A stretch of 64,000 nucleotides of DNA from a virus (taxonomy: Duplodnaviria > Heunggongvirae > Uroviricota > Caudoviricetes). Shown one piece after another: positions 11,046-36,839 of the stretch. The notes under the pieces were generated by a model that had not been told where the DNA came from, ran no database searches, and saw only the letters and a program-made list of their open reading frames with translations. The stretch is from IMG/VR virus record IMGVR_UViG_3300012667_000768; one strand, written 5' to 3'. Each line of letters opens with the position of its first letter. Positions within the stretch are counted from its first letter, which is position 1. The position numbers and the translations under genes are program-made.

Positions 11046-11573
11046 CAGATACTTATCCTTATCTGGCGAAGTGAAGTAGGCTGTTTCTTCCTCACGAGTC
11101 AATTTTCTATGTTGGGGAATACTCTTTTTATCCTTCCAACATACATAAGTGGTCCCGTCGAAAGGTATAGTCCAGGGTTCGATACTCATCTTATCTCCTT
11201 ATTGAAATGGCCCGTTCTGTTTCTAGGTGGAACCATACCCAATGTCTTAGTGCTTACGCAGCAAGAGCAAATGCAACGTCGTTATCGTTTGCAGTTATGT
11301 TTTGTGGCACTTTGCCAGTCAATAGTCTCGGCGTTCCTATTACTCGAAAATCGATCCTAGTTCGCCCCCATCATAGATACACTGGTGTGCTACTACGCTA
11401 AAGGATTGACCGTTACCCGATGGGAACTCGAACATTGTCCAACGGCAGTAATCCACTCCTTAGACGATGGCTGCTTCTAGGCCCACGTCCCAATGTATCT
11501 ATGGTGGAGGCGGCGGGTGCTGCCCCCGCGTCTTTCCGCTTTTATTGTCGGCTGTCAGCGACTATAGTCATCA

Positions 11574-11602
11574 GATATAACAAAAGTTACTCTGAAAGTC
11601 AA
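11574..11602 (-). promoter_or_regulatory. promoter TTGACT-N17-TATATC
   Basis: fires into the 480-bp non-coding stretch 11100-11570. Confidence 0.4.
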
Positions 11603-11605
11603 GAA

Positions 11606-12280
11606 TTATTTCTTTATTGCTATGAAATTTGCTTGGTAGTGTCTAGGCGTCATAATATTTAGTCTATTTCTAGCTTCGATTAAGTTTTCACTGAGCAGTA
11701 GATCGTAGTCCTCTGCTAGTAGAAATGACGCGTTCTTGCCCATACTATACGCTTCTATAAGAAGTTTTATATAGCTATACTTTATTCCCTTATGTAAAAG
11801 AGCTATTATTGATATTAATAACCACCCAGGAGCTTTTGTCTGAGTATAAGAGAACATGGCTAAGCACATTTCGCCAATATAAGAGGTATCGTATCCAGTA
11901 AGAGTATGCCATACGTCATGAACATCAGAATATCTTCTAGCAAGCCAGCTATAAGGATGCCTGGCTTCTATCCATTCTTTTTTGCCTTTGCGATTTAATA
12001 CTGGTAAGTAATCTTCTATATTTGGATACTGAAGGTAAGTTTCCTTTCCTACAGAACCCTCTGGCCTAGAAGATAGGTTTCTGAAATAGGTAGATACTTC
12101 TTCCGAATTGTATACTACCTCTCCGCCCTTTTTACTAGATATTAGCTTATTAAGCATACTCTTCAAAGAGTAACGATTAGTGACATATATAAGATATACA
12201 CTAAACTTAGGGTTCTCTGGATTTTTATAAAGCTTTTTACTTATTTTATACGCCGATTTAAGATCTAGTTTTGGCAGCAT
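11606..12280 (-). CDS. hypothetical protein with COQ4-like HDxxH-x11-E metal-binding motif
   Basis: 224 aa; VHDVWHTLTGYDTSYIGE matches the HDxxH-(x)11-E pattern of the COQ4 family. Confidence 0.45.
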   Translation of the reverse strand: MLPKLDLKSAYKISKKLYKNPENPKFSVYLIYVTNRYSLKSMLNKLISSKKGGEVVYNSEEVSTYFRNLSSRPEGSVGKETYLQYPNIEDYLPVLNRKGKKEWIEARHPYSWLARRYSDVHDVWHTLTGYDTSYIGEMCLAMFSYTQTKAPGWLLISIIALLHKGIKYSYIKLLIEAYSMGKNASFLLAEDYDLLLSENLIEARNRLNIMTPRHYQANFIAIKK

Positions 12281-20629: not shown

Positions 20630-20703
20630 TGGAGCGGAATGCGGGAATCGAACCCGCCTCGTCAGCTTGGAAGGCTGTCATAATACCACTATACCAATCC
20701 CGC
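20630..20703 (-). tRNA. tRNA (anticodon probably UCC, Gly), CCA encoded
   Basis: reverse complement GCGGGATTGGTATAGTGGTATTATGACAGCCTTCCAAGCTGACGAGGCGGGTTCGATTCCCGCATTCCGCTCCA; 7-bp acceptor stem (one GU); T-arm GGTTCGATTCC. Confidence 0.65.
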
Positions 20704-20704
20704 G

Positions 20705-20776
20705 TACCAATGGCTAGACTCGAACTAGCGACATAAGGAATATGAGTCCTCTGTTCTACCACTGAACTACACTGGT
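20705..20776 (-). tRNA. tRNA-Met (CAU)
   Basis: reverse complement ACCAGTGTAGTTCAGTGGTAGAACAGAGGACTCATATTCCTTATGTCGCTAGTTCGAGTCTAGCCATTGGTA; anticodon loop CTCATAT; 72 nt. Confidence 0.7.
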
Positions 20777-20855
20777 GTATAAAAAGGGCCGTCCACAGGA
20801 GGTTGCAAGACACCTGCCAAACCTGTGCGTTACTGTGTTTCCAACGGAAGTTAAT

Positions 20856-20932
20856 TGGTTGCGGGGATCGGATTCGAACCGATGACCTTTAGGTTATGAG
20901 CCTAACGAGCTACCTGACTGCTCCACTCCGCG
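20856..20932 (-). tRNA. initiator-like tRNA-fMet (CAU)
   Basis: reverse complement CGCGGAGTGGAGCAGTCAGGTAGCTCGTTAGGCTCATAACCTAAAGGTCATCGGTTCGAATCCGATCCCCGCAACCA; close to E. coli tRNA-fMet, including the C1-A72 mismatch and the three G-C pairs in the anticodon stem. Confidence 0.75.
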
Positions 20933-21399
20933 TCAAATGCTATTAAAAGACACTAGTAAAGTGATAAAGGTCCAAAAAACCACGATCGCTTCTATAAATT
21001 CGGCCTTGAATGTATACTAATGTCATTTAATAGCACTCCTAAGAATGCTACGAGAAGGATGAGATTACTCCTTCTATCGGAAGTCTTTGGTCATTACCCA
21101 ATCCCTTGCGAGGATGGTTCTACCTTTATCCACCAGAACGTCTCACGACTGTTCTAGTAACTTCCAGTGCTGCTTTATTATAGTGATAGCTTTTTCACTG
21201 TCATACCATGCTACTCACTCATTATTAACCCGTCTACCTTGCGAGCAGTTCAGTTCCGCTAAGAACTTACGTTTTCACTTCGAGCGAACAAATCCAGCTT
21301 GCGACCTTCATTGCACCATCTTCTATTACTAGGATGGTATTAAGCACCTTTCACATGGCACCGAAGCGGACTTTGCGTTTTCTATATATCGTTCCATGA

Positions 21400-21472
21400 T
21401 ATACGTTATAGGATTTGAACCTATGACTCTCTAATTAATGGTTAGATGCTCTACCAACTGAGCTAAACGTAA
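21400..21472 (-). tRNA. tRNA-like gene with non-canonical anticodon loop (CCAUUAA)
   Basis: reverse complement TTACGTTTAGCTCAGTTGGTAGAGCATCTAACCATTAATTAGAGAGTCATAGGTTCAAATCCTATAACGTATA; good D- and T-arms; 1-72 mismatch; position 33 is C. Confidence 0.5.
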
Positions 21473-21933
21473 AGTTGCTAACCTACCTCGAAGTGCCACT
21501 TCCGCTGCTTCATATCCTTTTGAGATACAAAATACAACACTCCGACTGTCTTTCTCCTTGCGAGATACTAAACCATGCTTCTGGACTTTCACCCATTGCA
21601 TTGCCACTTAGCCCTTCCACGCGAATGGTCGAACACAGTGACTACCAGTTAATTGTACGCACCTCATGTTTTGGCTTGTTATGGAACAGGACGCCAATCC
21701 CTTTATCCCTCACCGACCGGCTCTGGGCATATATCCTTTCGGACCATAACAACAATCCATGCGATGATTGCCTAGCTAAATAGACAATGACACGCTTTCG
21801 GCTATAAACCGAGTCGTATCCAACGCTGGCTTGCATAGTAGGACTCTTGCGAGCGGAGGTATGTAGGAATTCCTCCGTTGGCCACATTGCTGTGGTTATC
21901 CTTTATAGAGCGCTATGCCGCTCTTGAATATCT

Positions 21934-26511: not shown

Positions 26512-26770
26512 CTAATTTAGTCCACATATGAGAGTTGCGAGGAATGTTAGGAATAATAGTATAGTTATCCCCATCTTTAAATACTAGCCTATCATGTACG
26601 CCAGGCTTGAATGCACTAGCTGGAGCCTGCTCGCCATAATACCTAAAGATAAGATCTGATGGCTGTGGAGAGTTAGCCAGTAGAGTTTCTACTAGTTCTG
26701 CGTTGAAAGAGCGACGAGGCTTATGCTCTCCGCTCTTATTTGTCCACTCAGGAATAGTGATTCTGTACAC
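26504..26770 (-). CDS. hypothetical protein
   Basis: 88-aa ORF. Confidence 0.5.
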   Translation of the reverse strand: MYRITIPEWTNKSGEHKPRRSFNAELVETLLANSPQPSDLIFRYYGEQAPASAFKPGVHDRLVFKDGDNYTIIPNIPRNSHMWTKLDA

Positions 26771-27215
26771 GTTCTTTAATCTCCAAATAAAACTGATGAT
26801 ACTTGGCGATACGCTGAATATCCTTATCAGTTACGCCCTTTAGACGACGAATATCAGAGTTGTGACGAAGATCACACAGCTTGACTCGCATTGCATCTTC
26901 ATTCGCAAACACTTGACGCTTATATTCGTCATAGGTCTGACCACGCTGCTTCGTAAGCGAGTATATACCTGTAATTACTCTTTCACTAAAGCCAAGTTCT
27001 TTTAGCTGGTGATAAGTTACGTCTGTGTCTTCTACTAGGTCGTGACCTAGCGCAATGCACATCAGTTCTTCGTCGTCGCTTTTTAGATAGTGCATGACTT
27101 TAAGGCAGTGCATGATATAAGGCTTTCCAGCCTTATCCGTCTGCCCATCATGAGCATTGGTTGCTAGATGCAACATTTTGCTTAACATCATCAATTTCCT
27201 TTCTAATAGCTTCAT
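26748..27215 (-). CDS. HD-domain (p)ppGpp hydrolase-like protein (small alarmone hydrolase)
   Basis: AHDGQTDKAGKPYIMHCLKV...GHDLVEDT matches the RelA/SpoT-type HD hydrolase motifs; true start may be an internal Met. Confidence 0.6.
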   Translation of the reverse strand: MKLLERKLMMLSKMLHLATNAHDGQTDKAGKPYIMHCLKVMHYLKSDDEELMCIALGHDLVEDTDVTYHQLKELGFSERVITGIYSLTKQRGQTYDEYKRQVFANEDAMRVKLCDLRHNSDIRRLKGVTDKDIQRIAKYHQFYLEIKERVQNHYS

Positions 27216-28942: not shown

Positions 28943-29497
28943 TTAAACTGACTTTAAGAATGGTACTAGCCAATGCTTGTGTTTACCCCAAAAGCGTCTA
29001 GCCTTCAAGCCCTCTAGCTGAGCCATGTCTCTGCCTTCTGCTGATAGAAACCACTCTTTAGTATTGTAGGAACATCCAAACTGAACGTGACCATCATCAT
29101 AGACGGTGATTGGGTAATCTAGACCATCTAGTTGCACTGGTGGACGATTTATAATTCCTTTAGCCCACTCTACTTGCTGAATGTTTGCATCTTTAAGGTC
29201 AACATTAGAAAGCATACTGTCCTTAAAAGATGTGTGAATAAGCTGCGACTTAGCAAAGCTAGAGCAGAATACATATGCGTTTCTAATAGACGTTTGAATG
29301 AACGAACACTCAATAAACTGAGCACCACATAGGTAGCCCTGATCCATTAAAGCAGCATCAAAGTTGCATCTAGTAAAGATTGCACCTAGATACTCGGCTT
29401 TCTCTAGTGATGCCGACGTGAAGTCACAATCTGTGTACTCTGCGTGAGTGAAGTCAAAGCGATGAAGATCGCGACCATAGAATGATTCATTTTTCAT
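28943..29497 (-). CDS. pentapeptide-repeat protein
   Basis: tandem A(D/N)LxX-type pentapeptide repeats; start MKNESFYG lies 6 nt after a TATAAT box. Confidence 0.6.
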   Translation of the reverse strand: MKNESFYGRDLHRFDFTHAEYTDCDFTSASLEKAEYLGAIFTRCNFDAALMDQGYLCGAQFIECSFIQTSIRNAYVFCSSFAKSQLIHTSFKDSMLSNVDLKDANIQQVEWAKGIINRPPVQLDGLDYPITVYDDGHVQFGCSYNTKEWFLSAEGRDMAQLEGLKARRFWGKHKHWLVPFLKSV

Positions 29498-29600: not shown

Positions 29601-30065
29601 ATGGCAAACAATCTTATAAACAGCACCAAGTGGACTAAAGATGAGGAAGAGCGCCTCATGAATATCTATAGTCAGTATGACTCCCTCAAGGACGTCCCTT
29701 TTCACCTACTGAACTTTCCAGGACGCACAGAAAAAGCACTCAAAGCTAAACTCAATCGACTTATTACTAGTCACAATCTTACTTATTCTTGGACTAAGGA
29801 AGAGTCTAGAGAAGTCTTTCGCCAGTATCTACAAGGTGTCGCACTCAAAGACATTGAGACTGAAGCTTCCCTCAATGAACTCGAATCTGAACTCAAACGT
29901 CAGCGCGATAAAGCAGAGCAGATTGTTAGAGCTTACGCCGAAGAGCGTGGACTACAAGTCAACAAATATCTCTCACTAGAGACACTCAATCTCTTTCGCA
30001 ATAATTACAATACTACTAGTGACTTCACTAGAAAAGCACTACATAACAGGATTCAAAATGGCTAA
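29601..30065 (+). CDS. Myb/SANT-like DNA-binding protein
   Basis: WTKDEEERL and WTKEESREVF repeats; ATG 7 nt after the -10 box (leaderless); the track start is a TTG inside the -35. Confidence 0.5.
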   Translation: MANNLINSTKWTKDEEERLMNIYSQYDSLKDVPFHLLNFPGRTEKALKAKLNRLITSHNLTYSWTKEESREVFRQYLQGVALKDIETEASLNELESELKRQRDKAEQIVRAYAEERGLQVNKYLSLETLNLFRNNYNTTSDFTRKALHNRIQNG

Positions 30066-30381
30066 ACGCTGGACCAAAGAAGAAGATGCACTACTGCTCA
30101 AACTAAGACAAGAGGGTCTAAGCTCTAAAGAACTAGCATTCCATATCAAACGCTCCGCAGGAGCTATTCGTATGAGACTCTCAGCACTAGGAGCCGATCT
30201 AGTGTCTAAGCCTTGGTCCTCACAAGATAAGGCACTAGCTTGGCAACTTAAAGAAGCTGGACACTCTACTAAATACATTGCTAGAAAACTGCAACGCACA
30301 ACCGCTGCCATTACTTCCTTTCTTTCAAGAGATGAAGCTAATCATTACAGTAATAGCATACCTCTAGAAAATAGTTCTTGA
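30058..30381 (+). CDS. Myb/SANT-like DNA-binding protein
   Basis: WTKEEDALLLKLRQEG and WSSQDKALAWQLKEAG; start overlaps the upstream stop (ATGGCTAA). Confidence 0.5.
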   Translation: MAKRWTKEEDALLLKLRQEGLSSKELAFHIKRSAGAIRMRLSALGADLVSKPWSSQDKALAWQLKEAGHSTKYIARKLQRTTAAITSFLSRDEANHYSNSIPLENSS

Positions 30382-30406
30382 TTTTTTACAAAGCTTATGA
30401 TATAAT
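30378..30406 (+). promoter_or_regulatory. promoter TTGATT-N17-TATAAT into the 700-bp non-coding region
   Basis: follows the stop of 30058-30381. Confidence 0.4.
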
Positions 30407-30544
30407 CTACTATAAGCTAAAGCGAAGTAGGAAGATCGTTAGATATTCCGCAGCGCTGGGGCGTCGGTTCCCAAGACCGATACGACCCATGCGCTGCAAG
30501 AATTTATCTTAAACTAAAGCAAGCTTTAATCCAAATTACAACGT

Positions 30545-30843
30545 AGTTGTCAGATTAAGTAACCCAATGAAACGAAGTTTCAAGTCAGAGGACGAAGTCC
30601 TCTTGTTTGTTACATACTAAGATAACTGCGTGTTGTTGCCGAGAGTCGAATTGTATCTACCTCAAAAGTAAGAAAAATTGTTGGATTGGAACACAATTCA
30701 TCATGGTTTGTTGAGTTCCTGGTCAAACTTTACATAAATCGTACTAGTCGCGCCCCGCTCCTTCTAGCTCGTACCAGAGTTATGCGACGTAGTAATACTA
30801 GGAACGAAGTTCCTTAGCTCTAGTTAGACAACGTAGTTGTCTT
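30545..30843 (+). repeat. four short triloop hairpins, including the direct repeat ACAACGTAGTTGT
   Basis: ACAAC-GTA-GTTGT (30545), AGAGGAC-GAA-GTCCTCT (30590), AGGAAC-GAA-GTTCCT (30803), GACAAC-GTA-GTTGTC (30829). Confidence 0.45.
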
Positions 30844-31035
30844 TATTGCCTGCTGCTTAATTGCAGTGGGCTATTTTTGTGTCTAAATTTCACTTAATTA
30901 TATTAGATTGTTGTGGTGGCGATTGAATTTGCACTAGATGCGGCGAAGACCGCAAAGTTGTGCTCCGGTACCGCCACAAGCCAAAAAAATCGGCGCAATT
31001 TGCCTTTCGGTGCAGCAAAAACAACAAAAAACCCG

Positions 31036-31455: not shown

Positions 31456-31491
31456 TTGACATTGAGTTGAAACTGTACTAAAATCGGCGCC
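31456..31491 (+). promoter_or_regulatory. class A module: TTGACA-N17-TAAAAT followed directly by CGGCGCC
   Basis: transcript would end at terminator 31505-31548 after about 60 nt. Confidence 0.55.
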
Positions 31492-31504
31492 TTTGGCTTG
31501 GGCG

Positions 31505-31548
31505 CAAAAAAGCCCGCTGCAGATGGGCTGCAGCAGGCTATTTTCGTA
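31505..31548. terminator. bidirectional intrinsic terminator
   Basis: GCCCGCTGCAG-atgg-GCTGCAGCAGGC with flanking A6 and T4. Confidence 0.6.
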
Positions 31549-31694
31549 CTAAGCCGATCCGTGTGGAGACTCTGTTACAAGGGACTAAGCGTCCGCGGGT
31601 GAATAACAGGTACTCGGCGGGAGCCGGTCGTGTACTGATTGCTTCCGGAAGGGGGTGTGGAAGTTATCTACTGCCTCGCCCCTTCCTTTATTGC

Positions 31695-32099
31695 TTATGC
31701 ACTCAACTTAGAGCGGATTGCAATAAGCGACTGCTTCGAAGCCTTTTCGAGGCCTTCGAGGTTCTTGCCAACGATCTGGGCAATGTCAGCAACAATTGCT
31801 TCCTTGCTTTCGATCTTGCCACCAGTCTTGGAAACCTTTTCCTTCGACTTGTAGATGCCCATACGGACAGCCTTAGCGCGGATAGAACGCACGTCCTTAC
31901 CGAACTTAGCGGCGAACTCGATAGCAGCGTCATTGTCGATAACGCCTGCAGCAAGCATTTCGGCTTCCTGTGCTTCCGAGTAGTTCTTTGTTACTTCCTT
32001 AGTCATATCAACGTTCCCTTCCGTGTCTTGATGATTAGTTATACCAATGTCAGAGGAAGAAGTCAAGAACAATTTTCTCAATGCTGAAATAATTTTCAT
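31695..32099 (-). CDS. paralogous small-protein family member
   Basis: EFAAKFGKDVRSIRAKAVRMGIY; start MKIISAL with Shine-Dalgarno GGAAGGGAGAAGGAA. Confidence 0.55.
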   Translation of the reverse strand: MKIISALRKLFLTSSSDIGITNHQDTEGNVDMTKEVTKNYSEAQEAEMLAAGVIDNDAAIEFAAKFGKDVRSIRAKAVRMGIYKSKEKVSKTGGKIESKEAIVADIAQIVGKNLEGLEKASKQSLIAIRSKLSA

Positions 32100-32123
32100 T
32101 TCCTTCTCCCTTCCGACCCATTC

Positions 32124-32152
32124 TTTATAGCGGAATGGGCAGGAGAGATCAA
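32124..32152 (-). promoter_or_regulatory. promoter TTGATC-N17-TATAAA
   Basis: proximal promoter for 31695-32099. Confidence 0.4.
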
Positions 32153-32195
32153 GTGCAATTTTTGCATGTGGCCGGAGCAGTTGCAAAAAAAGCAC

Positions 32196-32224
32196 TTGAC
32201 ACGGCGTTGATTTCTCACTATACT
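32196..32224 (+). promoter_or_regulatory. promoter TTGACA-N17-TATACT, followed by TTGGCGCA
   Basis: first of two tandem plus-strand promoters. Confidence 0.5.
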
Positions 32225-32287
32225 TTTGGCGCAACGCGCTTTAACCAAATGGGTTAAAAATTTTTTCAAATTTAACCAAAAAATCGC

Positions 32288-32316
32288 TTGACACGAGGTC
32301 GTTTTCGCACTATAAT
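32288..32316 (+). promoter_or_regulatory. promoter TTGACA-N17-TATAAT, followed by TGGCGCA
   Basis: upstream of the palindromes at 32373-32436. Confidence 0.55.
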
Positions 32317-32372
32317 TGGCGCACGTAAGTTTTGTACTTGTAACTTTTGCACTCTGGCGCGGTAGCGCTGAT

Positions 32373-32436
32373 ATGATATATCATAACGATATGATATATC
32401 ATATCATTGGCTTATGTGATGATATAACATATCATC
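32373..32436. repeat. three perfect palindromes: ATGATATATCAT twice, and GATGATAT-aac-ATATCATC
   Basis: 32373-32384 and 32391-32402 are identical 12-bp self-complementary sites; 32418-32436 is an 8-bp inverted repeat with a 3-nt spacer sharing the ATGATAT half-site. Confidence 0.7.
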
Positions 32437-32526
32437 CAAATCTGCCTCGGCCAGCCCTCCCTCCCACCCTTATAGGGTAGCAATAAAATTTTACCCTGTC
32501 AAGCGCAAATAAAAATAAATTTTCTC

Positions 32527-32562
32527 TTGACAAACGTGTAGAAACCTGCTAAAATCGGCGCC
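32527..32562 (+). promoter_or_regulatory. class A module: TTGACA-N17-TAAAAT-CGGCGCC
   Basis: GGCGCC-N11-GGCGCC lies between this -10 and the -10 of the facing promoter. Confidence 0.55.
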
Positions 32563-32588
32563 TCCCCGATTTCGGCGCCAGCAGCCCT

Positions 32589-32617
32589 ATTATAGCAGGG
32601 TTCGGCTGGCGTGTCAA
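32589..32617 (-). promoter_or_regulatory. facing promoter TTGACA-N17-TATAAT
   Basis: convergent with 32527-32562; the two -10 boxes are about 33 bp apart. Confidence 0.5.
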
Positions 32618-32640
32618 GCGAAAAAATCGCAAAAACAAAA

Positions 32641-32686
32641 AAAAAATCCGCCCAGTTTTACTTGGGCGGACTCTCGTTTTACTTTG
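32641..32686. terminator. bidirectional intrinsic terminator
   Basis: TCCGCCCA-gttttact-TGGGCGGA; T10 on the minus side. Confidence 0.65.
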
Positions 32687-32689
32687 CCT

Positions 32690-33415
32690 TTACTTAACCT
32701 TGAAATGGTCTCGGACAGCAAAAGCGCGGTAATTGTATGGTGGCGGCGACATATATTCTTTTGGTGAAGTATTCTTAACAAGAGCAGTAAGAATAGGAAC
32801 CTCATAAAATTTGGCATCTTCTAAAGCAGTGTGCGGCTCGTCTGCTAGTCCAATGCCTAGCAAGTATTTCGCCATAACGTCCGCATTAGTTTTAATTCCC
32901 ATGTGGCCCGTTTTATTTGTGCGATTTCCGAAAAAGTGATTCTCTAGTGCAAATTGCTTGAAAGCCTTAGTATTTCCCCATTTGGCAACACTAGCGTGCC
33001 ATAGGCAAAAAGAATCGGGAAACAATTCATTTGCGATAATGCCCGAATTGTCCATGACATTTGCGTCAAAAGCCAAGTTATAGGCGGTCAATGTCGGGTT
33101 ATACTTTGCCTTTACTTTAGACAAAAAACGATTGACAGCGCCAACGCTTGCCAGAACGCGCCTGCCATCCTGCAACATTTGTTCATAGGCAGCGTAACGC
33201 TTAGGCAATGAAGCGGCAGAAAAAATGTCGTTTTTATCGCCGTAAACGTGAAACAGCGGATGCGTTTCGCGGTCGCTGAAAAAATCGCCAATAAGGATTC
33301 CAGCCTCGTGGTGGATATTGCCCTTGCGGTCGGACACAACGATTCCAATGTCGGCAACCTTGCCATCTTGTGTTGTTTCAGTGTCAATCGTGACAAAGTA
33401 TTTCTTAGCAGCCAT
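32690..33415 (-). CDS. DEDDh 3'-5' exonuclease (DnaQ-like)
   Basis: Exo I FVTIDTETT, Exo II YNLAFDANV, Exo III HTALEDA; start MAAKKYF with Shine-Dalgarno AAGGAAAAA. Confidence 0.7.
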   Translation of the reverse strand: MAAKKYFVTIDTETTQDGKVADIGIVVSDRKGNIHHEAGILIGDFFSDRETHPLFHVYGDKNDIFSAASLPKRYAAYEQMLQDGRRVLASVGAVNRFLSKVKAKYNPTLTAYNLAFDANVMDNSGIIANELFPDSFCLWHASVAKWGNTKAFKQFALENHFFGNRTNKTGHMGIKTNADVMAKYLLGIGLADEPHTALEDAKFYEVPILTALVKNTSPKEYMSPPPYNYRAFAVRDHFKVK

Positions 33416-33532
33416 TTTCGGTTTTTCCTTTTTCCGTTTCCGATGATTCGTTCTACCAGATTGCACGATTGATGCAAGAAAAATCGACATAAAAAATGCG
33501 AAACCTGTGGATAACTTTTTTCATTTTTCTTC

Positions 33533-33591
33533 ATTTTCCCTATTGACAGCACCCGCCCGCGCATGGTATAATTAGAGTAGCGTTTAAAAAT
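33533..33591 (+). promoter_or_regulatory. class B module: TTGACA-N18-TATAAT, then GTAGCG..AAATTTTCGGCGCC
   Basis: antisense to the minus-strand genes at 33646-34322. Confidence 0.5.
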
Positions 33592-33645
33592 TTTCGGCGC
33601 CTTTGGCGTGTTACCTGAGTAACACACCTCCGGCCTATTCATCCG

Positions 33646-33805
33646 CTAAGGTGATTTCCAGCGGCTCGCCGCTATATAGTTTATTCAATAGCCGCATGAA
33701 TCCAAACAATTCATCGAATTGTGTTTCCGATAAATCGCAATGGCAGACTATTTCGTCTATTTCGCCATAAAGCAAATTTATTGTTTCTTTTGACATTTGC
33801 ATTGC
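33646..33805 (-). CDS. small hypothetical protein (about 53 aa)
   Basis: not in the track; Shine-Dalgarno AAGGGGAAT; follows 33814-34005. Confidence 0.3.
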
Positions 33806-33813
33806 GATTCCCC

Positions 33814-34005
33814 TTAAATGACAGTCATTTCTTGTATAGAAACAAGGTGTTGTTCCTGTAGTGACTCAAAATTTAATTCCTCTTTATCATCTTCGCTTGC
33901 GTCGACGATAAAGTCCAAAGTATTAAACCAGTCTATTGCATTTTGTCGTGAAGTAAAGATAATGTTATCTTGCCCATAATCCCATTCTAGCCAAAGTCTA
34001 AACAT
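33814..34005 (-). CDS. hypothetical protein
   Basis: 63-aa ORF. Confidence 0.45.
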   Translation of the reverse strand: MFRLWLEWDYGQDNIIFTSRQNAIDWFNTLDFIVDASEDDKEELNFESLQEQHLVSIQEMTVI

Positions 34006-34016
34006 AGTAATTCCCC

Positions 34017-34322
34017 TTAGTATTGTGGATAAACAATTAGAGCCAAAAGAATAGTATTTACGAAAAAACCGAATCCGTTGGATACCATATACAAAACATC
34101 TTTATTCTTGTAAGCGCGGACAAAGTAAAGCGCCAAGCCAGCCCAAACTAGCAGAACCATTGAAAGCGGCGGCAGCTTGTCGCTATAACCTAGCAGAACC
34201 GAAATTGTGGTTGGCAATGTTGCGGATTGCACAAGAATCATTCCAGCCCAGCCGGACAATTCAGCCAATGGCATTGCTTTAATTTTCTTAATCATTTTCT
34301 TGTTTCCTTGCTTCGTTTCCAT
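34017..34322 (-). CDS. membrane protein
   Basis: several hydrophobic helices; Shine-Dalgarno AAGGGGAC. Confidence 0.5.
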   Translation of the reverse strand: METKQGNKKMIKKIKAMPLAELSGWAGMILVQSATLPTTISVLLGYSDKLPPLSMVLLVWAGLALYFVRAYKNKDVLYMVSNGFGFFVNTILLALIVYPQY

Positions 34323-34413
34323 GTCCCCTTATCGGCTATTTTTTGCCCTATTGCAAGAAGTTTATTTATGGAAAAAACCGATTAATAAAATTTGTTTAAT
34401 CGAATTTTTTCGC

Positions 34414-34449
34414 TTGACAGGCTAAAATAAATCTGCTAAAATCGGCGCC
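34414..34449 (+). promoter_or_regulatory. class A module: TTGACA-N17-TAAAAT-CGGCGCC
   Basis: GGCGCC-N16-GGCGCC lies between the facing -10 boxes. Confidence 0.55.
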
Positions 34450-34480
34450 TCTGGCCTCAATTTTCGGCGCCCATCGCCCC

Positions 34481-34510
34481 ATTATAACATGGCGGCGTGG
34501 GCCTTGTCAA
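34481..34510 (-). promoter_or_regulatory. facing promoter TTGACA-N18-TATAAT
   Basis: likely promoter of the 34017-34322 operon. Confidence 0.5.
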
Positions 34511-34529
34511 TAGGAAAAATGCACAAAAA

Positions 34530-34572
34530 ACAAAAAAAAAGCGGGGAACAAGTCCCCGCTTCGTTTCTATCT
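34530..34572. terminator. bidirectional intrinsic terminator
   Basis: GCGGGGA-acaag-TCCCCGC; T9 on the minus side. Confidence 0.65.
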
Positions 34573-34580
34573 TAAAGCCT

Positions 34581-34895
34581 TTAGGCTGCGAGCTTTTCCC
34601 GCAGAACCTGCAAAACCAGCTTGGGAGCCTTTTCGAGACCGTCAAGATTCTTGCCAACAATCGAAGCAATATCTTCTACAATCTTTTCCTTAGATTCGAT
34701 TTTACCGCCAGTCTTGCTGACCTTTTCAGCGGCTTTGTAAATGCCAAGGCGAACCGCCTTAGCGCGAATCGAGCGGACATCTTTACCGAATTTCGCAGCA
34801 AAGTCGAGAGCCTTAGCATTGTCAATAATGCCAGCGGCAAGCAATTCAGCTTCTTGCGATTCAGTGTAGTTTTTAGGTGTTTCAGTCTTAGCCAT
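34581..34895 (-). CDS. paralogous small-protein family member
   Basis: about 75% identical to the 31695-32099 product (DFAAKFGKDVRSIRAKAVRLGIY). Confidence 0.55.
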   Translation of the reverse strand: MAKTETPKNYTESQEAELLAAGIIDNAKALDFAAKFGKDVRSIRAKAVRLGIYKAAEKVSKTGGKIESKEKIVEDIASIVGKNLDGLEKAPKLVLQVLREKLAA

Positions 34896-35038
34896 GATAG
34901 TATTTCCTTTGTTATCGCGAGAGGCCCATCCCCTCTTGATGTCCCCTTATACCGCCGCTTTAGTAATCGTGCAAGAAAAAAATTCACGAAAAGCGAAAAA
35001 TGCGACGAACCGTTCATCGCATTTTTTCATTTAAGGGA

Positions 35039-35096
35039 TTGACAGGCCCCAGCCGCACGTGCTATAATGGTAGTAGCGACCCAAATTTTCGGCGCC
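35039..35096 (+). promoter_or_regulatory. class B module: TTGACA-N18-TATAAT, then GTAGCG..AAATTTTCGGCGCC
   Basis: transcript would end at terminator 35145-35175. Confidence 0.5.
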
Positions 35097-35114
35097 TTTT
35101 GGGCGCATCAGTCC

Positions 35115-35143
35115 ATTTTAACATATCCTGAATTTTGTGTCAA
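35115..35143 (-). promoter_or_regulatory. facing promoter TTGACA-N17-TAAAAT
   Basis: convergent with 35039-35096; leads toward 34581-34895. Confidence 0.5.
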
Positions 35144-35144
35144 A

Positions 35145-35175
35145 TAAAAAAAGAGGCTTTCGCCTCTTTTCTTTA
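35145..35175. terminator. bidirectional intrinsic terminator
   Basis: AGAGGC-tttc-GCCTCT with A7 before and T-run after. Confidence 0.6.
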
Positions 35176-35646
35176 GGCCGCAAGCCTTTCGTTTATCTTG
35201 GTTGCGTCATAGCATTTTATGCCGATTGAAACCATTGCATCAATAACCTTTAGGTTATCGTCAAACATGATTGCCTTAGCATCGGCAGCGCAATTGAAAC
35301 CTTCACCAATGAAATAGGTTTCAAGCAAACGAATCTTAAGGCTTGCATCGGATTCCATATTGCCCATTTCACGATGCAGCAAAGCGTCATAGGGAAGGCG
35401 ATTAACAGCAAGAAAAATCTTATCGGCTGGCTGGACTGCCCGCGCTGTGCAAACAATAACCTTATGCCCGATTGAAACCATAGCGCGCATTGACTCGGCT
35501 AAAGGCAAAAGCGAATCGGACATAATCTTTTCTGCGGTATTGTTAGCGAACCAATGGTCAAGGTCAAGCGAGCCATCGGCTTTAGTCGCTTGGCGATGCG
35601 TCGAATCAATCACAGTGCCATCTAGGTCAAAAATAATGTAAGCCAT
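35173..35646 (-). CDS. HAD-superfamily hydrolase/phosphatase
   Basis: motif I FDLDGTVIDS, motif II VCTAR, motif IV MFDDN. Confidence 0.7.
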   Translation of the reverse strand: MAYIIFDLDGTVIDSTHRQATKADGSLDLDHWFANNTAEKIMSDSLLPLAESMRAMVSIGHKVIVCTARAVQPADKIFLAVNRLPYDALLHREMGNMESDASLKIRLLETYFIGEGFNCAADAKAIMFDDNLKVIDAMVSIGIKCYDATKINERLAA

Positions 35647-35738
35647 TTGTTATTCCCTTTCGTCTTGATAAACAATCCTTAGCCGATATTGCGCCCTAGT
35701 GTCAACGAAAAAAATCGCAAAAATAAAAAATAAATGCT

Positions 35739-35796
35739 ATTGACAGGCCCTAGTCATACGTGATATATTTAAGGTAGCGTGCAAAATTTTTGGCGC
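35739..35796 (+). promoter_or_regulatory. class B module: TTGACA-N18-TATATT, then GTAGCG..AAATTTTTGGCGCC
   Basis: antisense to 35809-36009. Confidence 0.5.
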
Positions 35797-35808
35797 CAAT
35801 TGGCGGCC

Positions 35809-36009
35809 TTAATAGACCGCCAATCCAAAGGCTTCTAAGCCTTCCTCCCCATATTCGTTTTCGATTGCGGTAATGACCGCTTCCGTTGGCGAGTCGCCCG
35901 ATTCAAACATATTCCAATAGTCTTGGTCGGGCCACGTATCGCGGTCTAGGCCAGTGATACGTTGAAAGGCTTTGTCGACAGCGATAAGCCAAGATTCGAA
36001 ATTAATCAT
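35809..36009 (-). CDS. hypothetical protein
   Basis: 66-aa ORF. Confidence 0.45.
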   Translation of the reverse strand: MINFESWLIAVDKAFQRITGLDRDTWPDQDYWNMFESGDSPTEAVITAIENEYGEEGLEAFGLAVY

Positions 36010-36021
36010 ATTCGTTTCCCC

Positions 36022-36204
36022 TTATGGTAGATTCTGAAACATAGTAGCGCCAAGCCACATTGTAACCATGAAAGCAATTGAGGCAACAGTAAAAAACCAA
36101 ACCATCTTACGTTCTTCGCGCATTGCAACCATGCCCCACAGACACGTGAACACGCCAGCGATAGAGGCAAAGTAAATGATAAGAGCAACAACATATTCAA
36201 CCAT
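36022..36204 (-). CDS. small membrane protein
   Basis: two hydrophobic helices; minus promoter 36234-36262 upstream. Confidence 0.45.
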   Translation of the reverse strand: MVEYVVALIIYFASIAGVFTCLWGMVAMREERKMVWFFTVASIAFMVTMWLGATMFQNLP

Positions 36205-36233
36205 AGTCTTATTCCTTTTCGTCTTGATGCACC

Positions 36234-36262
36234 CTTATACCAATGGGCAATCACCTTGTCAA
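36234..36262 (-). promoter_or_regulatory. promoter TTGACA-N17-TATAAG
   Basis: upstream of 36022-36204. Confidence 0.45.
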
Positions 36263-36296
36263 CAATAAAAAATAAAATAAAAATAAAAATTTGCTA

Positions 36297-36325
36297 TTGA
36301 CATTGCGTTGGAGCTATGCTATAGG
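36297..36325 (+). promoter_or_regulatory. TTGACA-N17-TATAGG with an upstream A-tract
   Basis: weak -10; A-tract AATAAAA x4 upstream. Confidence 0.3.
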
Positions 36326-36410
36326 GAGGGCGGTTATTAGACTAGTTGGTTCCACGCACGCTGGGACTACTCCGCACGTACTACTTTGGGTAAAAACGCC
36401 CAACAAGGTG

Positions 36411-36839
36411 CTATTTAGAGTCGGCAGTAGCCTTGTTCACCAAGTCTTTATACCCGCGCCATGAAGGGTGAATATGGTCCGGTTGCAAATAAGTCGTCGA
36501 AATTATTCGGTCGCCATAGCTCACCGCCACGCTTCGAACCATCGCGTTCACGCCCAACTTACAAAATCTCACATTGCAAGGAGGCATAATCCAAACTACT
36601 CTAGACCCCCGAGGAATGCGCTTTCTAATCTTTAGCAACTCCACATCGGTCTTCACACCCACGTGATCATTCGTCCCCAAACTTATGATAATCGTTTTAG
36701 CCGAGACAGGATTCATTCCCCAGCGCTGATTCCACTGCCAAGAGTTTATTCCGCCCTTAGCATATGCCACACACTCCTGAGGTGCAAACATCTTTGTACC
36801 AACAGCGATCGAGTCGCCCATAATCAAACATTCTAGCAT
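36411..36839 (-). CDS. SGNH/GDSL hydrolase
   Basis: block I IMGDSIAVG, block III GTND, block V DHIHP. Confidence 0.65.
   Translation of the reverse strand: MLECLIMGDSIAVGTKMFAPQECVAYAKGGINSWQWNQRWGMNPVSAKTIIISLGTNDHVGVKTDVELLKIRKRIPRGSRVVWIMPPCNVRFCKLGVNAMVRSVAVSYGDRIISTTYLQPDHIHPSWRGYKDLVNKATADSK

Follow-up and report, generated by a model that had tools for sequence, protein, structure and literature searches.

In a 64,000-nucleotide (nt) stretch of DNA from an uncultured tailed phage (IMG/VR record IMGVR_UViG_3300012667_000768; hereinafter, the window), a block of small minus-strand genes houses a series of plus-strand promoters of near-consensus sequence in which the -10 box is followed by the motif YGGCGC. 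To judge from the positions of the surrounding genes, these promoters comprise a non-coding class that is antisense to the early genes of the phage and co-oriented with its late genes. The tentative interpretation that we prefer, and to which we would assign a probability of about 0.45, is that this antisense class of sigma-70 promoters, marked by its discriminator, acts via promoter competition, head-on interference and short cis-antisense transcripts. The anatomy of the modules, their conservation, their strand and orientation bias and their phage specificity are supported directly by the comparisons described below.

Each module combines an A/T-rich upstream region, TTGACA, a spacer of 17-18 bp that often includes TGn, TAWAAT and, at the discriminator/start-site position, a single pyrimidine followed by an invariant GGCGC; on the strength of this anatomy, it is apparently a real sigma-70-type promoter. 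The plus-strand modules and the minus-strand promoters that face some of them match the sigma-70 consensus in 11-12 of the 12 positions each, and, from 31.3 to 36.4 kb, no intergenic gap of more than ~150 nt is without a plus-strand promoter of this kind (Table 1). An earlier note on this DNA had listed six such promoters of the form TTGACA-N17/18-TAnnnT, and all six are present (31456, 32527, 33543, 34414, 35039 and 35740), with the third starting at 33543 rather than at 33533; the list was incomplete, however, as it overlooked two more plus-strand promoters with TGGCGCA after the -10 box (32196 and 32288) and one without GGCGC (36298). The tandem promoters at 32196 and 32288 lie in a 40-nt direct repeat with 80% identity, 92 nt apart. 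In the division into a class A, with CGGCGCC directly after the -10 box, and a class B, in which GTAGCG intervenes, two details need correction: GTAGCG is preceded by four nucleotides and not by the eight originally given, and at 35740 the -10 box is TATATT and the motif TGGCGCC. The pairs of GGCGCC hexamers agree with their description and are located at 32557 and 32574 (N11), at 34444 and 34466 (N16), and at 35091, here followed by TTTT-GGGCGC.

The number of GGCGCC hexamers in the window is unremarkable (8 compared with 4.4 expected; 9 of 100 shuffled sequences reach 8), but their placement is far from random. All eight are found between 31486 and 35797, within 4306 bp, the probability of which under random placement is ~5e-8, and all stand 1, 18 or 22-23 nt after a plus-strand -10 box; the portion of the window that lies within 45 nt downstream of such a box is only 0.6%, yet it holds the entire set. 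The promoters themselves are overrepresented, with 21 matches to TTGACA-N16-19-TANNNT compared with 3.8 expected in the window, a number that none of 100 shuffles reached. We also considered avoidance of GGCGCC as a restriction site outside the modules, but the deficit (0 observed, 2.1 expected) is not significant.

The phage is a distant relative of T5. The large terminase encoded in the window shares 47-49% identity with the terminases of T5-like Vibrio, Pectobacterium and Serratia phages, the protein encoded at 38697-39119 matches the T5 small terminase family, and dmp, the pre-early 5'-deoxynucleotidase of T5, has a homologue in the HAD protein encoded at 35173-35646(-) (32% identity, E = 1e-17). 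Because of the latter homology, the region of the promoters would be the early or pre-early block; its small genes (31.1-38.6 kb) run away from the plus-strand structural module that begins at 38.7 kb.

An exact-pattern scan of IMG/VR contigs for TTGACA-N17-TAWAAT-YGGCGCC, in line with the earlier suggestion that the motif be sought in relatives, found the combination of promoter and motif conserved in 87 viral loci, many of them on contigs of 75-110 kb and several with 2-3 copies, whereas the same promoter followed by the composition-matched palindrome GCCGGC was present in none of the loci in viral contigs. In 596 Gb of bacterial and archaeal genomes, there were only 22 matches compared with our estimate of ~17 by chance, and three of these 22 are contigs of related phages binned in metagenome-assembled genomes (MAGs). 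Approximately 45-56 of the 87 viral loci encode homologues of the 104-amino acid (aa), exonuclease-like, dmp-like, small terminase and large terminase proteins of the window. Given the contrast between the 87 viral loci, the empty control and the near-chance count in cellular genomes, the promoter with YGGCGCC appears to belong to this lineage of uncultured T5-like phages and not to be a general bacterial promoter type.

From all these loci, we collected 575-589 non-redundant promoter-like sites, of which 186-195 have GGCGC 0-4 nt after the -10 box and are denoted the GGCGC class. In 161 of 195 such promoters, GGCGC begins exactly 1 nt after the -10 box. The -35 box, spacer, TGn and -10 box are conserved in full in ~195 copies, with an A/T-rich UP region (consensus AAAATA..TC) ahead of the -35 box and a TGn-extended -10 box in 45% of the copies. 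The base following GGCGC is less constrained: it is C in 100 cases, G in 33, T in 5 and A in 8, and the heptamers in relatives include CGGCGCC (75), CGGCGCG (26), CGGCGCT (5) and CGGCGCA (4); in one close relative (L001; L numbers designate individual loci), the orthologues of several GGCGCC hexamers of the window are GGCGCT or GGCGCA. Since the sixth base varies, the conserved unit is apparently an oriented Y-GGCGC on one strand and not a palindrome.

Conservation extends to the position and the architecture of the modules. Orthologous positions retain them in close relatives (L001 and L113-L115, with ~75-89% nucleotide identity) and in the more distant L006, L045 and L092. In an alignment of 12 sequences that covers two orthologous face-to-face modules, the invariant elements are the plus-strand -35 box, TGCTA.A.T, CGGCGCC, most of the second GGCGC, the minus-strand ATTATA and GTCAA, and the A-tracts, whereas variation is found in the spacers and between the two copies of GGCGC. 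Ahead of the exonuclease-like gene, where the class B promoter at 33543 stands back-to-back with the sense promoter of that gene, ten lineages with 48-91% protein identity keep the same order of a hairpin, 1-7 nt, GGCGC, -10 box and -35 box, although the sequences of the hairpin and of the spacer differ, so that a hairpin of different sequence takes the place of the one at 33607-33630. Face-to-face pairs number 26 across the relatives, with ~27-46 bp from one -10 box to the other and ~8 to 22 nt from one copy of the motif to the other. The proposal that these convergent promoters form a repeated, selected regulatory node is thus borne out by the recurrence of the architecture at orthologous positions.

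The orientation of the promoters sets the GGCGC class apart. According to counts made with a crude map of open reading frames (ORFs), 124 of 148 GGCGC-class promoters have an opposite-strand gene as the next one downstream, compared with 267 of 312 other promoters for which the next gene is on the same strand, the median distance to it being 40 nt. In more than 95% of the comparisons, GGCGC-class promoters are on the strand of TerL, portal and small terminase and have the genes of the exonuclease-like, dmp-like and 104-aa proteins on the other strand. Same-strand cases are few, and for most of them the downstream ORF is spurious; the rest include the small terminase gene, at a distance of 570-990 nt, and small genes of distant relatives.

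The sense promoters have marks of their own. Those that are proximal to genes share ATCAAGAS on the minus strand (36228, 35669, 34940, 32032 and 22250), 5 nt after the -10 box (TATAAG, TATAAC or TATAAT) at four of the five sites and 8 nt after it at 35669, and the distal sense promoters that face the antisense modules carry GGRNYGAYR-GCGCC after the -10 box. Given that each has its own discriminator or initial transcribed bases (YGGCGC, ATCAAGAS or GGRNYGAYR), the phage would possess at least three promoter classes.

All three facing minus-strand promoters reported for the window, running from 32617 to 32589, from 34510 to 34481 and from 35143 to 35115, are present, and the -10 boxes of each pair are indeed close together, although the distances are 33-46 bp (Table 1) and not 20-40 bp. 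The plus-strand transcripts were thought to be short and to end at bidirectional terminators; a hairpin with a T-run on both strands, common to the termination of the convergent genes, is found downstream of the promoters at 31456, 32527, 34414 and 35039, with predicted ends after ~55-115 nt, but the modules at 33543 and 35740 lack a plus-strand T-run. In the other direction, a strong terminator at 35026-34996 lies ~110 nt downstream of promoter 35143(-). Given that this transcript, too, meets a terminator, the third pair would yield two short RNAs that overlap at their 5' ends.

Taken together, these arrangements suggest how the class might function. The antisense promoters stand at each border between neighbouring early units, on the late-gene strand, each back-to-back with the promoter of one neighbour and directed head-on into the 3' end or terminator of the other, with predicted transcripts of ~40-130 nt. 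About a third of the modules additionally face a second consensus promoter, with predicted start sites ~13-32 bp apart. The footprint of an open complex extends from approximately -55 to +20. Because start sites at such distances leave no room for two open complexes, a facing pair would be a mutually exclusive, competitive node. The antisense promoter would then compete with the facing sense promoter and occlude it, and could collide with read-through from the upstream unit or insulate against it; its short cis-antisense RNA may pair with the first 15-30 nt of the sense leader and with the terminator hairpin of the upstream mRNA. The GGCGC discriminator, finally, might serve as a handle for regulating this class apart from the sense classes.

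Several observations weigh against this interpretation. The actual start sites, the promoter strengths and termination are predictions from sequence, and the interference, the regulator and the function are likewise what we infer. Interference explains neither why the motif must be GGCGC nor why a second copy stands 18-23 nt after the -10 box; a sigma-70-dependent pause at the second copy was considered and rejected, as the -10-like A/T run ahead of it is not conserved in relatives. A strict terminator is present within 250 nt in 22% of the GGCGC-class copies of the clade (compared with 7% of other promoters), so short transcripts are not universal, and we discarded immediate termination as a general property. 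The excess of divergent partner promoters within 150 bp is modest (45% of the GGCGC class, 33% of other promoters), and obligatory divergent coupling was rejected for this reason. In distant relatives, GGCGC-class promoters form tandem arrays, and a few may drive small genes. With regard to a regulator, the T5 protein gpT5.026 binds the beta subunit and weakens the discriminator contacts of RNA polymerase (PMC7472727), but no homologue was detected below E = 0.66 among all ORFs of at least 40 aa in the window, which is part of the genome.

The RNAs themselves might be the functional product, either as short structured RNAs that act in trans or titrate a protein (for example, as terminator-hairpin decoys) or as cis-antisense RNAs that trigger decay of early mRNAs, an alternative that we deem unlikely. 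Structure is certainly abundant: clade-wide, the 40 nt after GGCGC fold at -10.9 kcal/mol compared with -6.8 for shuffled sequences and -3.5 for other promoters, five of the six predicted plus-strand RNAs of the window fold better than shuffles (z = -2.7 to -3.5), several relatives have a strong hairpin with a U-run within ~10 nt of the promoter, and facing transcripts overlap at their 5' ends. However, much of this structure is the terminator of the convergent gene, and the sequence after the motif is not conserved even at ~80% nucleotide identity, for which reason a sequence-specific RNA product is unlikely. A search of 29-39 kb with the Rfam 15 covariance models identified no family at the gathering score (the best sub-threshold hits had 17-26 bits, E at least 0.15). 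The idea that both transcripts of a pair begin with a GGCGCC hairpin did not hold up as a specific or conserved feature: GCGC is part of a 5' stem in 61% of 197 copies and in 57% when the downstream sequence is shuffled. Of the short or antisense RNAs that the earlier note had envisaged, those acting in cis are therefore plausible, whereas a sequence-specific family acting in trans is opposed by the lack of conservation in the transcribed sequence.

More speculatively, and in our opinion doubtfully, YGGCGC could be the mark of a strand-specific class that is switched as a block by a phage factor. Conceivably, an RNA polymerase modifier or a monomeric GGCGC binder would flip the polarity of transcription throughout the early or pre-early region, in a genome-scale antisense shut-off toward the late genes; or else, open complexes would expose the non-template GGCGC to a nickase or a replication initiator, a version that, if true, would tie the promoters to the enigmatic T5-type nicks or origins.

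It is quite improbable that GGCGCC is the operator of a dimeric DNA-binding protein, of the phage or of the host, that sits between two promoters and blocks both, as first proposed. The motif is located at or near the start sites of both promoters in each pair, and putative small DNA-binding proteins are encoded nearby, namely, two Myb-like helix-turn-helix (HTH) proteins (29601-30378) and the duplicated 104-aa protein, which has a weak match to phrog_1725, annotated 'DNA binding protein'. However, the palindrome is not conserved, with only the oriented YGGCGC being invariant; the copies are direct repeats on one strand, with a spacing of ~8 to 22 nt that suits neither a symmetric dimer nor a fixed helical phasing; and 5-6 bp is short for the operator of a dimeric HTH protein. 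As for the 104-aa protein, its AlphaFold model (predicted local distance difference test score, pLDDT, of 67) has an N-terminal three-helix bundle whose homeodomain-like matches are weak and not significant (E above 1). A monomeric or tandem binder that recognizes YGGCGC is possible.

The prospects of another scenario, in which the modules are transcription-activated replication starts or primer promoters, where RNA polymerase opens the DNA or makes a short primer, seem slim. There are precedents in T7 phi1.1A/B, T4 oriF/oriG and the activation of the lambda origin, and it would account for strong promoters that make no protein and all point in the same direction. The tandem promoters at 32196 and 32288 precede an A/T-rich array of three palindromic 16-mers, a perfect DnaA box (33506-33514) lies near the class B promoter at 33543, and in L065, L080 and L092, a DnaA box is located exactly 27-28 nt upstream of the -35 box of eight GGCGC-class promoters (five perfect TTATCCACA and three with one mismatch). 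However, only one subclade shows this precise placement; the window has no excess of DnaA boxes (15 compared with 15.6 expected) and, clade-wide, they are no more common at GGCGC-class promoters than at others. Moreover, eight or more origins in 5 kb would be unusual, the terminators that immediately follow many copies hardly suggest R-loop priming, and the GC skew merely follows the direction of transcription.

Very little speaks for YG/GCGC being a strand-specific nick site akin to the single-chain interruptions of T5 (Pu/GCGC; the slash marks the nick). In T5, the nicks are confined to one strand and have the consensus 5'-R/GCGCRGG-3' (PMC3517423), and A/GCGCAGGG is the sequence at two annotated sites, of which one was placed by match to the consensus; the present phage is T5-like, and its motif is strand-oriented, with a purine (G) invariably ahead of GCGC on the plus strand. 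The likeness is nevertheless limited to four bases, given that GCGC is followed here by C, G or T and variable bases, without the RGG of T5; the major T5 nicks are dispersed and unconnected with promoters, one of them being inside a gene without a promoter, whereas the motif is clustered in 5 kb and locked to the -10 box; and the nicked strand of T5 is the sense strand of the early genes, opposite to that of the motif. Hardly more credible is a weak minus-strand terminator or attenuator of early transcripts (GCGCC...GGCGCC-GAUUUUA), with the plus-strand promoters being secondary: the minus strand of each class A site does present a GC stem with GAUUUUAG after it, and the hairpin at 33607-33630 has a minus-strand G-U pair that is a C-A mismatch on the plus strand, but the stems are of 4-6 bp with loops of up to 16 nt, the U-run is short or separated from the stem, real terminators with long stems and U-runs already adjoin most modules, and the -35 box, spacer, TGn and -10 box conserved in ~195 copies would go unexplained.

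Two kinds of palindromes occur next to promoters of the GGCGC class. The 16-mer GATATGATATATCATA is present in three copies at 32369-32435, spaced by 18 and 28 nt, in an A/T-rich array that resembles an operator or iteron array, and in two distant relatives (L053 and L007), another perfect palindrome, GTTCCACGTGGAAC, is found in the apparently corresponding place, downstream of tandem promoter arrays. In 14 of 217 GGCGC-class promoters of distant relatives, compared with 1 of 410 others, the -10 box is followed at 9-15 nt by the start of a palindrome that resembles a Fur box, AATGAGAATSATTCTCATT (L004, L005, L014, L019, L036, L044, L051, L078, L085, L090, L102 and other loci); 896 kb of related loci contain 65 such palindromes. 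They suggest iron- or Fur-responsive control, or Fur titration, in those distant relatives.

Cultured phages that are close to this one in DNA were not found: megablast of the region against phage genomes and, in the search for near-identical cultured relatives, tblastn with the 104-aa protein both gave no match, and the exonuclease-like protein matched only distant Enterococcus phages. L092 (JBEQCG010000015.1), a 36.9-kb contig in a MAG of Thiobacillus sp., is a close phage relative (74% identity in the exonuclease-like protein and 83% in the dmp-like protein), and its binning is a weak hint of a betaproteobacterial host. The ends of the relatives' contigs fall at differing window positions (28137, 30115 and others), which does not fit a common genome terminus. 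The two paralogous 104-aa proteins, encoded at 31695-32006(-) and 34581-34895(-), are 73% identical to each other and have 464 unnamed metagenomic homologues; a possible homology to T5 A2, hinted at by BLASTP (E = 0.014), was rejected after profile comparison (probability 1.2%).

Elsewhere, the window encodes a GOLLD RNA (201.7 bits) with an embedded tRNA-Asn, a permuted alpha-type transfer-messenger RNA and three more tRNAs, four tRNAs in all (21056-21545, 11206-11606 and 20630-21473, all on the minus strand), as well as a protein with an HD_4 (SpoT-like small alarmone hydrolase) domain (26751-27215, minus strand) and a pentapeptide-repeat protein (28946-29497, minus strand). The two small Myb-like HTH proteins mentioned above are the products of the only plus-strand coding genes near the early block. 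Next to them, at 30378-30871 (+), a promoter-like TTGATT-N17-TATAAT is followed by ~450 nt without a convincing ORF and a plus-strand terminator (30848-30871); this stretch has no Rfam match, is 79-89% conserved in L113 and L114, and is a candidate non-coding RNA. Another non-coding stretch, of 150 nt (31545-31695), separates the terminator at 31511-31539 from the stop codon of a 104-aa gene; its conservation is 82% in L001 and partial in L006, and it could be a structured 3' untranslated region or a small RNA. Downstream of the promoter at 36298, ~90 nt are conserved in L001 and L045. The conserved non-coding stretches at 31545-31695 and 36300-36415 are shared with few relatives.

Table 1. 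Predicted promoters, terminators and hairpins of the early block (window coordinates)
Feature	Position	Strand	Sequence and context
GGCGC-class promoter	31456..31491	+	TTGACA-N17-TAAAAT-CGGCGCC; back-to-back with sense promoter running from 31399 to 31371
Bidirectional intrinsic terminator	31511..31539	both	Ends ~55-nt plus-strand transcript and gene 31695-32006(-)
GGCGC-class promoter	32196..32233	+	TTGACA-N17-TATACT-TTTGGCGCA; TGGCGCA after -10; first of tandem pair
GGCGC-class promoter	32288..32323	+	TTGACA-N17-TATAAT-TGGCGCA; reads into the three palindromic GATATGATATATCATA repeats
GGCGC-class promoter, plus arm of face-to-face pair 1	32527..32562	+	TTGACA-N17-TGCTAAAAT-CGGCGCC
Second direct-repeat CGGCGCC	32573..32579	+	11 nt past the first; equals ~+4 to +9 of facing minus-strand transcript
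Facing strong promoter, pair 1	32589..32617	-	TTGACA-N17-TGCTATAAT, then AGGGCTGCT-GGCGCC; -10 to -10 gap 33 bp
Bidirectional terminator	32642..32675	both	Ends gene 32690-33415(-) and ~110-nt plus-strand transcript
Class B promoter	33543..33601	+	TTGACA-N18-TATAAT-TAGA-GTAGCG-...-AAATTTTC-GGCGCC; motif 23 nt after -10
Hairpin	33607..33630		GGCGTGTTAC-CTGA-GTAACACACC; directly after stop codon of 33635-33802(-)
GGCGC-class promoter, plus arm of pair 2	34414..34449	+	TTGACA-N17-TGCTAAAAT-CGGCGCC
Second CGGCGCC	34465..34471	+	16 nt past the first copy
Facing strong promoter, pair 2	34481..34510	-	TTGACA-N18-TGTTATAAT, then GGGGCGATG-GGCGCC; -10 to -10 gap 38 bp
Bidirectional terminator	34538..34562	both	Ends 104-aa gene 34581-34895(-) and ~115-nt plus-strand transcript
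Terminator (14 pairs and T-run)	34996..35026	-	Upstream of sense promoter of 104-aa gene; ends short minus-strand RNA from 35143
Class B promoter, plus arm of pair 3	35039..35106	+	TTGACA-N18-TGCTATAAT-GGTA-GTAGCG-...-AAATTTTC-GGCGCC-TTTT-GGGCGC
Facing promoter, pair 3	35115..35143	-	TTGACA-N17-TGTTAAAAT; -10 to -10 gap 46 bp
Bidirectional terminator	35150..35169	both	AAAGAGGC-TTTC-GCCTCTTT; ends dmp-like gene 35173-35646(-) and plus-strand transcript from 35039
Class B promoter	35740..35797	+	TTGACA-N18-TGATATATT-TAAG-GTAGCG-...-AAATTTTT-GGCGCC; -10 TATATT, TGGCGCC
Hairpin	35800..35823		TTGGCGG...CCGCCAA right after motif, just downstream of stop codon of 35809-36009(-)
Sense, gene-proximal promoter (example)	36234..36262	-	TTGACA-N17-TATAAG-N5-ATCAAGAC
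Antisense promoter without GGCGC	36298..36326	+	TTGACA-N17-TATAGG

Convergent promoters, antisense promoters and promoter classes encoded by the discriminator are each known singly. In the literature that we searched, we found no description of their combination, that is, a clade-wide class on one strand with its own discriminator mark, non-coding punctuation of an early block and repeated face-to-face pairs. How T5-like phages time three classes of genes using the host sigma-70 polymerase alone is a still unsolved problem, and a large uncultured T5-like branch carries a second, sharply defined promoter class that appears to be aimed against the early genes. The GGCGC motif, the facing pairs and the immediate terminators are mutable targets for probing discriminator-based control of promoter classes and promoter-competition circuits, and compact, mutually exclusive, terminator-insulated cassettes of consensus promoters could be of use in synthetic biology.

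A precedent for the present finding is T5 itself, whose early sigma-70 promoters are distinguished from the late ones chiefly by the discriminator, that of the early ones being ATATT (Klimuk et al. 2020, PMC7472727). Both T5 and the phage described here have consensus-type promoters that depend on host sigma-70 and fall into classes set by the bases between the -10 box and the start; here, however, the class mark is YGGCGC, and the promoters that bear it are non-coding and oriented antisense to the early genes. In the first-step-transfer region of T5, we saw no such antisense consensus promoters, and the T5 pre-early promoters P-H22 and P-D/E20 lack the YGGCGC motif.

The promoters of stable RNAs that are subject to stringent control, such as rrnB P1, combine an UP element and near-consensus hexamers, separated by a 16-bp spacer, with a GCGCC-like block between the -10 box and the start, and have C as the second base after the -10 box. 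The UP element, the hexamers and the GC-rich block are common to the modules described here, and the HD_4 domain protein of the phage offers a further link. By contrast, the modules have G as the second base after the -10 box, the optimal base for sigma region 1.2, and a spacer of 17-18 bp; the promoter with its motif is rare in bacterial genomes, and no tRNA or rRNA, of the kind that stringent promoters drive, was found downstream of the modules.

Convergent promoters that overlap, pIN and pOUT, are also known in IS10, where the antisense RNA-OUT, conserved in both sequence and structure, blocks the ribosome site. As predicted here, the 5' ends of the two transcripts overlap over a few tens of nucleotides, and the non-coding arm yields a short hairpin RNA that is complementary to the coding leader; in the modules, however, the ribosome site is a long way downstream of the overlap, in which no sequence but GGCGC is conserved.

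Finally, coliphages 186 (pR/pL) and P2 (Pe/Pc) possess face-to-face switches with repressor operators, in which both arms lead to genes and, in 186, the start sites are 62 bp apart. These switches resemble the pairs described here in that convergent sigma-70 promoters are located within tens of base pairs of each other and one would lower the activity of the other, although for the modules this interference is a prediction. The differences are substantial: the start sites of the present pairs would be only ~13-32 bp apart; instead of the inverted-repeat operator of a repressor, there are only direct YGGCGC repeats, with neither the palindrome nor the spacing conserved; and the plus arm is apparently non-coding, running into a terminator and, from the 3' side, into a convergent gene. 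Furthermore, whereas 186 and P2 each rely on a single developmental switch, the phage described here has three pairs in 5 kb, and its relatives share 26 among them.

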